A stretch of 58,549 bases of DNA, the filler included, from Sluysia triapertura (taxonomy: Eukaryota), in NCBI GenBank assembly GCA_046118255.1. It is 4 parts of 4 records of this genome, joined end to end, with 100 filler letters (N's around TTAATTAATTAA, not from the genome) between each part and the next. Parts side by side here need not be neighbours in the genome. Positions count along the whole stretch, not along the records: positions 19,211 to 32,561 come from JBJNIA010044794.1; 3 more parts are not named here. One strand, given 5' to 3'. Numbering within the stretch: the first letter of the stretch is position 1; every line of letters starts with the position of its first letter. The notes under the pieces were generated by a model. The model worked only from the letters and a program-made list of their open reading frames with translations. It ran no database searches and had not been told where the DNA came from. The position numbers and the translations under genes are program-made. Of this stretch, positions 19,211 through 23,739 are shown piece after piece.

Positions 19211-20868
19211 TATTAATCCCGGAAACGCCAGTGCTAATATTATCTGTTTTAGTGTGTCTTGTGCAGCTCTTTTAAAATGATCTGGTCTAAATAATAATTC
19301 GAAATTTACTTGTCCATCTTTTCAACTGTTGCTTTATCTATGATTTCGTTTAATATTTTTGATCTTTTTATTGGAAATAGTATTTCCCGCCATGCTGCTT
19401 GAATATCATCATTCGTATATATGCCAGAATTGTGTGTATTTTTGTAGCTAAAAACTTCAGTTTTCCCTTTAGTTCGGTTAATCCTATTATTTCTGGAGTT
19501 TTTACCTGGCTTCTATGTGGTAAGGATATCCATAAATTATCATCAATTCGATATTCCGGTGCCATACCATTAGAACAATGCTTTAACTTTGGTTTGACTT
19601 TTTTATTTGGTATGATTACTCTGGTTACTGGTTTGAGGTATGTTTCTATTTTACCTTATAGTAGAGGCAATTCATTTGTACATTCGGTGGTTGATCTTAA
19701 TTGCACGTATACTTTTTTTTACATTTGTATGTGTATAATAATTCGACCAAAAAACTCCTTCTTCTAATGGTTGTAGTGGTGCGACTAAGTCTGGGTTTGT
19801 AATAGCTATTGCGAATTTTGTGCGTAAATTTTCTTTGTTTAATTACAATCCCGAGTAACCATAATATGATAAATTTTTTCCAGTGAAATCAAACTTACAT
19901 GGTAATAGAAATCGATTAAAATAGGTATTTAATTTTATATTTTTTGTATCAATGCCTTTCATAGCTTGTTGAATTATTTTCTCTGAGAGATAAATTCCTT
20001 GGTAGTTAGTTTCTGTTATTTCTTTTCCACAGCGGATTACTGTCACTTTTAAAATAAAAATCAAACCATATTCTTCTATAAGGCTATTAGTATTGTCGGT
20101 GTTTCGACTTCATCTAATCTTTTTCTTTGTATATGGTCAGTATATTTATTTATTTCTCTAATGGATATTAGTCTTTATCTTGATACATGAATCCTGATAT
20201 TACATTAAATTTTATTTGTTTAAGAAATATTAGTGGACATTGAAATTTGTCCAATTCGTAAATTAGTATTGAGTCTCCAGTGTCTCAACTGATTTGATCA
20301 CTTCATAGTACCATTTTCCATATTAAAACTTTCATTAAATGACTTTTAGACTAACTATGTATGTCTCCTGTGCGACAACATTGTGATATATTTTTTCTTT
20401 ACATTCAATCGTCCCTTGTTCGAATGTTCCATCTATCCATACGTTTCCAGCGGTTCTTATATTATAAATTATCTTTTCATTATTTCCAATTTTTAATTTA
20501 TCTCCCTTTGTTAGACTTATATAACCGGTTTCAAATGCATCTCTGCATTGTTTAGGTAATATCTTAAATGGTTTAAGTACATTAGATAATTCTATACCAG
20601 ATTGCCACTGATCCTTTTACCTTACACTCCCTTATCAGAGTCGTTATTAGATTACCTTCTTGGTAAACACTCATTACCTTAGTATCTTTTATCTGTATTC
20701 TATTTGGCCATTCAGGACAGTCTTCTGTGTCCAATAGTGAAAATGTTCTGCCTATTTGTGGCTGACTACAATCAAATGCCTTTATTGCATTAGTTCTATT
20801 TATCGAATTATGATAAACAACATGCTGTTTGTCGAATTACCTATCCTTGGTATTGCATTATTTAACAT
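19211..20868 (-). pseudogene. env: Chuvirus-type viral fusion glycoprotein (env), with frameshifts and small deletions; C-terminus runs into the gap
   Basis: Manual translation gives in order IKAFDCSQPQIGRTFSLLDTEDC, SVYQ...ECKV, QCRDAFETG, AGNVWIDG, HNVVAQETYIVSL, RCGKEITETNY, NIKLNTYFN, AITNPDL, YTYKCKKVYVQLRSTTECTNELP, YLKPVTRVI and HCSNGMAPEYRIDDNLW. This is the motif series of chuviral glycoproteins (xDC...SLLD..C; C..V.V..R....C..ELPV; P.TRI). Confidence 0.8.
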
Positions 20869-20929
20869 TATTTACCGTTATTGCCGAATAACTGTGTCGG
20901 CTCTTCTGCTTTTTGACTCTTTTTTCCTT

Positions 20930-21306
20930 TCATTATATTGCGCCAACCTCCTTGATATTCAATCCATAATTTAGTTTTCTTAATTACAAAATTTATAACC
21001 TTATCTATTTTAATTTTGGTAATAATTTTTTCTCGATTGCATTGATATGTAACATATGTTAAGATTATTTTCAGCTTTCCCTCATCCAATTCTTTATTGA
21101 TTAACTTATTTATTACCACTTTATATTGTTCATTTTCTATAAAATCACATATCTTTGTCTTTATATCTTTCTTCAAACTTTCTTATTAATTTATCTATAG
21201 AAACTTTATATTCTTTGTTGATTTCTGCCAATAACTTCTTATATTTAGTAAAATTAGTAAATTTTTCGGATAAAAAAGCATAAATTATTCATTTAGTATC
21301 TAATTC
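20930..21306 (-). pseudogene. Bcl-2 family domain (BH4-BH3-BH1-BH2) inside the element; one stop (21289-21291) and one frameshift (~21153)
   Basis: BH4-like LDTK*IIYAFLSEKF, BH3-like SIDKLIRKFEERY, BH1-like YKVVINKLINKELDEGKLKIILTY and BH2 LWIEYQGGWRNI (WIEYQGGW at 20943-20966), in canonical order and spacing. Confidence 0.8.
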
Positions 21307-21699
21307 AATTTCGTCATTATTTTCATAATTTATTTTTATTAAATCAATAGTGTCTTTAACGATAGGTGCAGTTATTATATCTTTTTCGTCTTTTCGTGGA
21401 CGCCCAGGTTTTCTTTTTATTGTATTTGTTTCCTTGTCAACGGTTTCTGTATGTGGGTTTTTGTTAAGGTTCACTATATAATCCGGTGGCTCATCGTTTT
21501 CTTCTTCGGAATCGATATCGACTAGCTCATTATTTTCGGCTTCAGCATCGATGTCAACTATATGTTTATCATCCTCCTCCATTAATTGTCTTAGTAACGT
21601 GCGTGGAGATTCATTATCGTTTTTATTTGTTTCGTTTTTCCCATTATTTGAAGTTTCGTGTACTACTTCTGCCTTTATCATTTCATCATGATCACCCAA
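21289..21699 (-). pseudogene. Acidic low-complexity linker with AT-hook/NLS-like motif, part of extended ORF1
   Basis: KRKPGRPRK at ~21391-21418 contains the GRP core of AT-hooks; duplicated VDID(A/S)E(A/E)EN. In frame with the Bcl-2 BH4 segment across a single TGA. Confidence 0.6.
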
Positions 21700-22082
21700 C
21701 GGGTAACCATAATCTATTAAATATTCTCTAGATTCTAGATATCTCTTAAAGAAATATAATTTAGTTTAAGCATATCTATTACATCTTCTACTGCTATGAT
21801 AACAGGCAATTCCATAAATACATTTACCAATTCTGCTAATAATATGTTAACTTTCATCAATGTATCAGGTTGCTCTATTCTATCCGCTAAACCAATTTTT
21901 CTTAATAATTTTCTTGCTTTAAAGCTATGCGGACTGCTTTCCTGACTTAAATAAAGTAAACGTGACCTGATACTTTGTCTGTTAAACATATCTAAATTCA
22001 TTTTTAAAAGTATGTTTAAATTTTTATCTGTATCTTTGCTGTCTGTTAAATCTGAAAGAAATACTTCTACCTCTTTGGATAG
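21700..22082 (-). pseudogene. Tandem death-effector-domain-like (FLIP-like) module, part of extended ORF1
   Basis: SIRSRLLYLSQESSPHSFKARKLLRKIGLADRI fits without gaps on c-FLIP DED1 helices 4-6. ILLAEL...KLNYISLRDI*NLENIL fits c-FLIP DED2 (VLMAEI...KLNLVAPDQLDLLEKCL). The RxDL motif is not intact. Confidence 0.55.
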
Positions 22083-22190
22083 ACCACTAAATGTTGTTTC
22101 TTGTGTGTTATTTTCTTCATTTGGTATATCTTCTTCATTACCTAAAATAATCATTGACTCAGTATCTGAGAGTATATCATTTATTTCTTC

Positions 22191-22664
22191 TTATTGATCG
22201 CATGAGCTAATTGTTTCGCAGTCGATATCACTCAATATTGATTTACTATGCTTCATCCATCGATTTACAATTTCTTCAGCATGCTTCCTTTCTTCTTCAA
22301 TTTGATGAGCACTTTTAATTATTCTTAATTTTTGTTGCTCCTCTATTTCTTTTCTTTTCCTTTCCTCTCTTTCCTTTTCTCTTGCTAATTGTATAAAGTA
22401 ATTATGTAAATAATTAATAAACATATCTTCTTCATCCTCATGACTACTCCTGGGCTGTTTCTTTTCTTCTCTAATTTCATTATTGTCCATTTTTCCTCTA
22501 CGAAATTCTCGTAACATCTCTTCCTCTTCATCTATCAGTGTTCTTGGATGTCTTTCATATTCGTAATCCTCATACTCCTCATCATAATTACAATTTATTT
22601 GTCCCTCATTCTTACTCTTATCGAATCTTACTCTCCTTGGTGAGGCCTGTCTAGATTTCGACAT
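22191..22664 (-). pseudogene. Charged/coiled-coil linker of extended ORF1
   Basis: In frame with the upstream knuckle remnant, and separated from ORF 21735-22154 only by one in-frame TAA (36-nt offset). Confidence 0.55.
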
Positions 22665-23739
22665 TTTATTTAAATCTTGCTTAAAAGTATTTGACTTTAA
22701 CTTATTACAATGTCTGCCACAATTGTGACATTTGTTCTACATTCGTCTAGTTTCATAATTGTTATTGTAGTTTGATCGTGCAGGACTCTTGTCTCTTACT
22801 GAATTATTCTTATTATTTGATTGTTAACTAGGTCATCTTGGCAGTGGACGTTGTTTATGTTCTCTTGGGCCCATATTATTTATTTGTCTTCTCTCAAATC
22901 CTACATTAGTATAATTTCTTCCTGTATTATTATTTCTGAAATTATTTCTTCTACTGTTGCCGCGAAAGTTATTGCCTCTATTACCACTGTCATTACTATC
23001 AAAGTTATTGTCTTCAAAAGAATTATCTTACTTATGTTTAGGGGATTCACTATAATTATTATCCTCAAAAGAGTTCTCATACTCATGCTTGTAATTATTT
23101 CTTGTATTTTTGTTATCAGCTATATATAACTTACATTTTTTCTAGTTTCTTTTTTAGTGCGTTCAATGCTTCTTAATGTCTTAATTATATCTTTAAATGA
23201 CTTTTCTTCGATCAAGTCTATATTTATCGTAACTTTGGGCGTAGTCCATTTTTAAACTTGTCTATTAATATTTTTCTTCTTTGTTTTCTGACACCATAGC
23301 TCTGGACGCTAAACTTCTCAGCGCACAGGCAAATTCATAAACTGTTTCGTTTGGTTTCTGCATCCTTATATTAAGCATTCTTGCATAGTATTTTCCTATG
23401 TCTTCTATTGCTATTTCTTCGGTAAAAACATCAACAAATGTATTCCAATCTTCTTTATATTCATCCTTTATTTCCTTATATGTCTGTATTGCAAGACCAG
23501 TTAAATAATATTGTATTATCTTAACCTTATCTATTGGTGACCAGCCATTAGCTTCAGCTAGGCTATCAAATTCAAATAAAGTTACAAAGTTCTTCCTCGG
23601 CGCCACTAAACTTGCGCATTTCGGGAAGTATTACTATCGGTTTAATATTCTGAGTCAATTGCGTCATGCACTCCTTAAATTCTTCATATGATACTGCTAT
23701 TGTACGTCTTTCGAGTGAGTTACTTCTTAGAGTTCTCAT
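22665..23739 (-). pseudogene. gag: Ty3/Gypsy-type Gag (capsid, N/R-rich spacer, degenerate zinc knuckle)
   Basis: ATG at 23739: MRTLRS...LPEMRKFSGAEEELCNFI, frameshift, EFDSLAEANGW...YYLTGLAIQTY...RMQKPNETVYEFACALRSLASRA (MHR-like QxxxETVxEF), frameshift, LIDKFKNGLRPKLR; later KCHNCGRHC at ~22708-22734, a shortened CCHC. Confidence 0.85.

Follow-up and report, generated by a model that had tools for sequence, protein, structure and literature searches.

A decayed, probably continuous gag-env frame on the minus strand

The window analyzed here is a stretch of 58,549 nucleotides (nt) from Sluysia triapertura (assembly GCA_046118255.1), composed of four joined parts. Its minus strand carries what are very likely the remains of a gag-env retroelement, in which a Gag capsid, a zinc-knuckle remnant, a charged stretch, a series of small accessory modules including a Bcl-2-like domain, and an envelope glycoprotein follow one another (Table 1). 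The visible element spans ~7 kb plus a gap, with ~987 codons from the Gag start to env. A sequence-only reading of this DNA had proposed a single open reading frame (ORF1) of ~950 codons, in which two death effector domains (DEDs), an AT-hook and a Bcl-2 domain are fused to the C-terminus of Gag.

The region 23739-20871 is a decayed long open reading frame (ORF) that is now no longer open. The path with the fewest breaks through this region contains 12 of them, eight in the Gag part (23739-22670) and four in the accessory part, compared to 45.4 ± 3.3 in dinucleotide shuffles (0 of 200 as low). Both the opposite strand (27 breaks vs 26.7 shuffled) and the DNA upstream of Gag (52 vs 47.1) are at chance. 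The frame is thus far more open than its shuffles, and the earlier frame map holds as far as it goes, but the breaks in the Gag part, at least eight, had not been listed.

The frame from 22736 to 22194 is open (181 aa) and includes both the knuckle remnant and an ATG at 22664, which confirms the in-frame connection read between the knuckle and the ORF at 22191-22664. A single TAA (22193-22191) lies between it and 22190-21738, which continues this frame, again as read before for the piece 21735-22154. The following piece, 21765-21292, lies in a different frame and overlaps the end of 22190-21738; a frame change alone therefore joins both, and of the stop plus frameshift proposed as the link to 21289-21699 only the frameshift is needed. 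The codon at the supposed start of that piece, 21699, is TTG, and its first ATG lies at 21681. One TGA (21291-21289) separates 21765-21292 from 21288-21148, the piece named BH4, as had been seen; a further frame change near 21182-21150, which had been missed, cuts the Bcl-2-like domain and leaves its BH1/BH2 half (21182-20871) out of frame with the ‘BH4’ piece. No intergenic spacers occur in the frame map, in agreement with the earlier claim.

A Monjiviricetes/gB-type env lies directly downstream of gag on the same strand. Its three pieces match Pfam PF24664 with E-values of 1.8e-5, 2.1e-4 and 0.022, and env is 38% identical to P0026 across 535 aligned residues; this alignment contains 11 frameshifts and 3 stops, of which one falls in the gap linker. 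P0026 is one of three relatives used throughout (P0005, P0011 and P0026), all predicted proteins without genomic context. A word-based search with the env of P0026 retrieved only P0026 itself among 7,474 candidates. Because env begins ~54 codons after BH2 (61 residues in P0005), the original frame most likely continued, judging from the sequence, through a signal-peptide remnant into env, and 20868 was probably not its original end. The claim of one Gag-fused ORF1 is hence retained as to the common ORF, which is supported by the uninterrupted chain of P0005, the lack of a usable ATG in the Bcl-2-like pieces and the denser breaks in env, but not as to its end at Bcl-2. Break density is at least 6.9 per kb in env and 2.2 per kb in the accessory stretch. 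As env is a single protein and more densely broken, the accessory breaks need no cause beyond decay. On this reading, stops and frameshifts accumulated once the copy had inserted, and it can no longer make the protein.

Beyond env lies a gap at the expected place of the env tail and pol. The three gaps in the window (19111-19210, 32562-32661 and 45267-45366) are identical 100-nt placeholders, each consisting of 44 N, a 12-nt all-frame stop linker and 44 N, and the true gap sizes are therefore not given by the sequence. The minus strand on the far side of the first gap (17100-19110) contains a Cys-rich stretch as well as hydrophobic segments and, near 18530, a PPxY motif, and yielded no informative Pfam match. 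It is probably the 3′ part of the element, possibly 3′ accessory ORFs. A possible protease remnant spotted by eye near 18450 was rejected as it is without Pfam support.

Table 1. Coordinates of the element and its surroundings within the window.
Feature	Position	Strand	Remarks
Gag N-terminal piece	23575..23739	-	ATG at 23739; frame change near 23590; frameshift-aware alignment to P0011
Ty3/gypsy-type Gag capsid core	23227..23630	-	Further breaks near 23290-23230; Pfam Retrotrans_gag E 0.0018, under the Pfam cut-off
Asn/Arg-rich low-complexity linker	22740..23141	-	In-frame stops; N-rich stretch alike in P0011 and P0026
Degenerate zinc-knuckle remnant	22707..22730	-	CX2C kept; remaining CCHC spacing non-canonical
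Acidic, charged, probable coiled-coil stretch	22194..22664	-	Comparable charged stretch in P0011; coiled coil suggested by composition
Helical module (claimed first DED)	21876..22073	-	Weak homology to the P0005 and P0011 module
Probable ubiquitin-like module (claimed second DED)	21661..21857	-	Split by frame change at ~21765-21738
AT-hook-like motif KRKPGRPRK	21391..21417	-	From sequence; GRP motif at the same place in P0005
Putative N-terminal helices of Bcl-2-like domain (claimed BH4)	21148..21288	-	Weak
Bcl-2-like BH1-BH2 half	20925..21182	-	Divergent BH1; BH2 with WIEYQGGW
Decayed linker and probable signal-peptide remnant	20780..20870	-	Short hydrophobic remnant; minimum 2 breaks; presumed
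Monjiviricetes/gB-type envelope glycoprotein, decayed	19211..20800	-	Pfam PF24664 on three pieces
Assembly gap	19111..19210	.	100-nt placeholder; expected place of env tail and pol
Further decayed coding DNA	17100..19110	-	Minimum 11 breaks vs 26.0 ± 2.7 shuffled

Gag, the accessory modules and their relatives

When one frame was read through its stops and searched with phmmer, 31 matches were obtained, all starting in the Gag core (best E 2.7e-13), and the majority of these relatives match Retrotrans_gag, Ty3_capsid, PNMA or zf-CCHC. By these matches and the Pfam Retrotrans_gag match, the Gag is of the Ty3/gypsy type. The knuckle remnant has no Pfam zf-CCHC match; the local alignment of 22736-22101 to P0011 begins at the P0011 knuckle and is equaled in score by 2 of 200 shuffles. 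Among longer proteins, a word-based search with the Gag piece retained 0 of 168 candidates. Two alignments were set aside: A1, which misplaced fragments and whose PDB search (6 unrelated matches) was discarded, and A3, which is reliable only over Gag. In the Gag relatives P0017, P0018 and P0021, the frame continues past a hydrophobic segment into a region rich in cysteine that has no Pfam name and looks, by eye, like another class of glycoprotein joined to Gag.

P0005 is an uninterrupted chain of 1,130 aa with the same architecture: Gag and the knuckle are followed by the helical and ubiquitin-like modules, the AT-hook, the Bcl-2-like domain, a putative signal peptide and Env. This one chain carries matches to Gag, zf-CCHC, ubiquitin (E 0.031), AT_hook (E 8.4), Bcl-2 (E 0.055; full-length, profile positions 6-100 of 100, below the cut-off) and Monjiviricetes fusion (E 6e-19), and a hydrophobic segment at residues 784-798. 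P0026 combines Gag, a hydrophobic segment, env and an aspartic protease match (E 0.0018) in one chain, and P0011 comprises Gag, two knuckles, a charged stretch and a helical plus ubiquitin-like-looking end. The same env class was found in the same chain as Gag in 2 of the 31 phmmer relatives. When the window is cut into fragments, the P0005 Bcl-2 region, the helical modules of P0005 and P0011 and the ubiquitin-like motif all score best at their expected places, in order (1,636 fragments; 24,353 20-mers for the motif). A word-based search with P0005 385-790 among shorter proteins returned 0 of 4,212, and two ESM Atlas searches gave no usable match.

The region 21182-20925 is, on sequence grounds, likely Bcl-2-like. 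It ranks 1 of 1,636 window fragments against P0005 651-748, and once its breaks are read through, the whole Bcl-2-like region reaches an alignment score of 79.5 against P0005 (shuffles 41.7 ± 7.6; 0 of 500 as high). Pfam Bcl-2 is matched at E 0.17, below the 31.4-bit cut-off. When a two-sequence profile of P0005 and the BH1-BH2 half is searched against the PDB, all 32 matches belong to the Bcl-2 family, matches that are not independent of each other, with the poxviral Bcl-2-like protein FPV039 as the best one (E 0.22). The canonical BH1 core is NWGR, which is also visible in the aligned PDB matches. At this position the window reads DEGK and P0005 reads SRNK, and BH2 is clear in both. The ‘BH4’ piece alone ranks only 121 of 1,636 and aligns to P0005 only together with the next piece. 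The model of the P0005 Bcl-2 region is helical, with a predicted local distance difference test (pLDDT) score of 29-54, and Bcl-xL is found at Foldseek rank 9 (E 1.1).

For the two claimed DEDs, neither Pfam (five pieces of the window, P0005, P0011 and the rows listed for the 31 relatives) nor PDB sequence searches (0 matches) gave a DED match, and the claim is not upheld; one module resembles ubiquitin and the other HEAT/TFIIS-N-type bundles, both weakly. The claimed second DED is probably ubiquitin-like instead. A 20-residue ubiquitin-like motif of P0005 and P0011, picked by eye, places the start of 21765-21292 first among 24,353 20-mers, and the Pfam ubiquitin match of P0005 has no equivalent in P0011 or in the two halves in the window. 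The module at 21661-21857 itself has no direct Pfam or PDB match.

The helical module ranks 1 of 1,636 fragments at its expected place, against both P0005 and P0011. Within the P0005 model, reasonable confidence is reached only in the counterpart of this module (pLDDT 63-76 for residues 1-80), which aligns with HEAT-like and TFIIS-N-type bundles at Z 7.0-7.8. The TFIIS-N-type matches are the LEDGF IBD (2mtn; Z 7.2, root-mean-square deviation (rmsd) 3.1, 80 aligned), the HRP2 IBD (6t3i; Z 7.0, rmsd 2.6, 75 aligned) and Elongin A (6zuz; Z 7.0, rmsd 3.0, 75 aligned). All these fold matches stay below Z 8, as is usual for helical bundles, and serve as a lead only; from the model, a HEAT/TFIIS-N-type bundle is a tentative and rather doubtful assignment. 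A single-sequence model of 21771-22094 is all helix (pLDDT 43), with an uninformative best fold-search Z of 6.1. The 50 VIA rows for the P0005 model include no entry with a death fold, Bcl-2 or ubiquitin, and Foldseek gave no match at E ≤ 0.001 in PDB or BFVD; both absences exclude nothing.

The AT-hook-like motif reads PGRP where the AT-hook core has RGRP. Its piece in the window has no Pfam match, and the GRP motif of P0005 is the one matched by AT_hook at the E-value given above.

The window is AT-rich animal DNA with a GC content of mostly 0.15-0.31. On one side of the element lies a protein-kinase gene (Pfam Pkinase) that encodes a long coiled coil and is probably ROCK-like; on the other lies a CDP-alcohol phosphatidyltransferase gene. 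The latter host gene (26962-27690, plus strand) has four tested introns that are very short (38, 33, 34 and 36 nt). A 229-codon open frame on the minus strand (29817-30506) shows a weak TMEM126 match (E 0.01). A 73-nt repeat occurs at 24115-24187 and 30879-30950 (81% identity), each copy ~370-450 nt upstream of a minus-strand ORF, namely Gag and the TMEM126-like ORF; it has no Rfam match at the gathering score. Upstream of Gag lies a 54-nt tandem repeat of 2.3 copies plus a third diverged copy (24262-24381 and 24525-24567), which could be part of a leader or of a decayed long terminal repeat (LTR). An 89-nt direct repeat (14320-14408 and 32716-32804; 84% identity) has its copies 18 kb apart. 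Searches of the window found no Rfam family and no tRNA. Neither the repeat search nor self-BLAST of the window revealed an LTR pair; decay or the gap after env may hide LTRs.

A probable dead polyprotein element and its alternatives

With good confidence, we interpret the locus as a dead genomic copy of an envelope-carrying Ty3/gypsy-type gag-env(-pol) retroelement, built like a compact Burro and descended from a single polyprotein. In the live element, one polyprotein would have run from the Gag capsid and zinc knuckle through the charged coiled coil to the accessory modules (helical, ubiquitin-like, AT-hook and Bcl-2-like, in this order), followed by an internal signal peptide, Env and probably Pol. 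Its synthesis would proceed in the cytosol up to the entry of the internal signal peptide into the endoplasmic reticulum, where signal peptidase would release Env into the lumen. The signal-peptide stub would remain attached to the preceding part of the chain, immediately after the Bcl-2-like domain, and may act as a membrane anchor; cellular Bcl-2 proteins carry a tail anchor at their C-terminus. Capsid, nucleocapsid and the accessory modules would probably be freed by the element protease. Each polyprotein would supply one Bcl-2-like domain per Gag and Env, and the earlier proposal of production at Gag stoichiometry follows from the polyprotein. The favored role of this domain, at about even odds, is that it damped apoptosis and kept the particle-producing cell alive. 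Packaging of the modules and their delivery on entry is possible. A more elaborate scenario, in which a compact enveloped and possibly non-planarian lineage used the TFIIS-N/IBD-like bundle, ubiquitin-like module and AT-hook as a chromatin tether, and carried the Bcl-2-like domain, anchored by the Env signal peptide, in the particle membrane for delivery on fusion, is considered improbable.

Several observations weigh against parts of this interpretation. All accessory-domain calls lie under curated cut-offs, and the stretch of helical and ubiquitin-like modules is not significant against shuffles (27 of 500 for P0005; 71 of 500 for P0011). The expected fragments were not placed in the top 6 by the two-sequence ubiquitin-like profile, nor by a single-sequence hidden Markov model of the P0005 Bcl-2 region, and phmmer with just the BH1-BH2 half placed a Bcl-2 protein no higher than 12th among 13 matches. 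The PDB matches to the Bcl-2 family are interdependent, and the AlphaFold model of P0005 is poor over the ubiquitin-like and Bcl-2 parts and has no strands. The Bcl-2-like domain is seen in only 1 of the 31 relatives, P0005, which as a predicted protein could be a gene model. Only one copy of the element was available from this genome. No pol match was found in 19110-16600, and a gap of unstated size follows env.

Some poxviral Bcl-2-fold proteins act as scaffolds or innate-signaling antagonists. A fused but non-apoptotic Bcl-2-like domain of this kind is a possibility, if less than likely, in our element: it is favored by the divergent BH1 and by FPV039 as the best PDB match, and countered by the well-kept BH2 in both the window and P0005, and by the precedent for anti-death cargo set by the captured IAP of Burro1, which is reported to guard stem cells (PMC13465017). 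The reading with two DEDs and Bcl-2 fused to Gag, packaged and delivered on entry to block both extrinsic and intrinsic death, is very unlikely. The sequence at 22073-21876 does look helical and amphipathic, in line with the low-confidence all-helix model, and a polyprotein would put the modules close to assembling Gag. However, no DED match was obtained in Pfam or PDB sequences, the second ‘DED’ matches a motif inside the P0005 Pfam ubiquitin match, the part of P0005 that is modeled with confidence aligns with the HEAT-like and TFIIS-N-type bundles, and section 7 of PMC6431247 describes Burro with a Ubi2/SUMO-like domain before BCL-2 and names no DED.

Separate small accessory genes with their own starts, or programmed readthrough or frameshifting, would also leave a series of pieces. 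Three of them have an early ATG (22664, 22154 and 21681), breaks are sparser in the accessory stretch than in env or Gag, and in Burro relatives a domain may sit inside the polyprotein or have an ORF of its own (PMC6431247, same section). Against this, the first ATG of the Bcl-2-like pieces lies only at the last codon (21150) of one and past BH2 (20933) in the other, so that none is usable; two breaks fall inside domains; and Gag and env, each necessarily one frame, are broken as well. We regard this explanation as highly improbable, and equally so that of an intact element with breaks introduced by sequencing or assembly errors. The assembly is indeed a draft with placeholder gaps, and a homopolymer of ≥ 5 is close to 3 of the 13 frameshift sites (8% background), but not to the other ten, and in-frame stops occur too. 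Three long host exons or ORFs are without any break, a biased control as they were picked for length.

Comparison with known retroelements

The primary papers on Burro/GYPSM1 are Grohme 2018 and Jurka 2007. In the account of section 7 of PMC6431247, to which the following comparisons with Burro refer, these are giant gypsy-like LTR retrotransposons of planarians (> 30 kb with LTRs). Planarian Burro has one ORF of ~4,900 aa with retrotrans_gag, CCHC knuckles, Smc, MATH, BIR, ankyrin, Ubi2/SUMO-like and BCL-2 domains and an in-frame Env with mononegavirus glycoprotein matches, followed by protease, dUTPase, reverse transcriptase, RNase H and integrase. Decaying Burro fragments are described in Dugesia japonica. 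The layout of Gag, knuckle, ubiquitin-like, BCL2, Env and Pol in a single ORF is already published for Burro (PMC6431247). Our element likewise has Gag, knuckle, a probable coiled coil (Smc-like in Burro), ubiquitin-like module, Bcl-2-like domain and Env in the order of one frame, here up to decay and with a weak ubiquitin-like call, and stops and frameshifts occur in the decaying copies there too. It differs in having only ~987 codons from the Gag start to env, and in its AT-hook and HEAT/TFIIS-N-like module, which section 7 does not name for Burro; ~7 kb of it is visible, plus the gap. No Pfam match to MATH, BIR or ankyrin was found in any piece or read-through frame here; the stretch between Gag and Bcl-2 is filled by other modules. 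The element works like Burro but is not filed as Burro, as MATH, BIR and ankyrin were not detected and the placeholder gap after env keeps its pol, LTRs and full size from view.

GAG-ENV-POL errantiviruses with an HSV/gB-type Env are known from Nematoda, Bryozoa and Platyhelminthes and are intact with pol (PMC13524379, main text). They share with our element the chuvirus/gB-like Env right after Gag, with a signal peptide in front (here a probable remnant). They differ in that the main text holds 0 mentions of Bcl, apopto-, ubiquitin or death, and in that our copy is dead and its pol was not found. The BEL/Pao elements named Anakin (PMC7642597, PMC12440569) are LTR elements that also carry a chuvirus-like fusion glycoprotein. 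Here, however, env follows Gag plus accessory modules, the Gag matches are of the Retrotrans_gag/Ty3-capsid type and a Bcl-2-like domain is present. Literature searches yielded no report of an LTR retrotransposon with Bcl-2, a death effector domain and gag, no report of a gypsy gag polyprotein with a TFIIS N-terminal domain, and, for captured anti-apoptotic Bcl-2 in gypsy retrotransposons, only unrelated work.

The significance of the locus is limited in that the layout is already in print, the copy is dead and the DEDs, the most striking part of the sequence-only reading, are not upheld. What it adds is that the Gag-ubiquitin-like-Bcl-2-Env layout also exists in a compact form without BIR, MATH and ankyrin, here and in at least one uninterrupted relative (P0005), which suggests that death regulators are modular cargo in Burro-like elements. 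Such cargo is also found in the host-transposon mutualism of Burro1 B-IAP (Lee et al. 2026), where the IAP is reported to protect stem cells from caspase-mediated apoptosis (PMC13465017). Like Burro1, our element is probably an LTR element with a captured cell-death regulator; the cargo there is an IAP (BIR/RING) with a reported function, whereas our dead copy carries a Bcl-2-like domain known from sequence. If the host is non-planarian, the element would extend the range of retroelements with anti-death genes.

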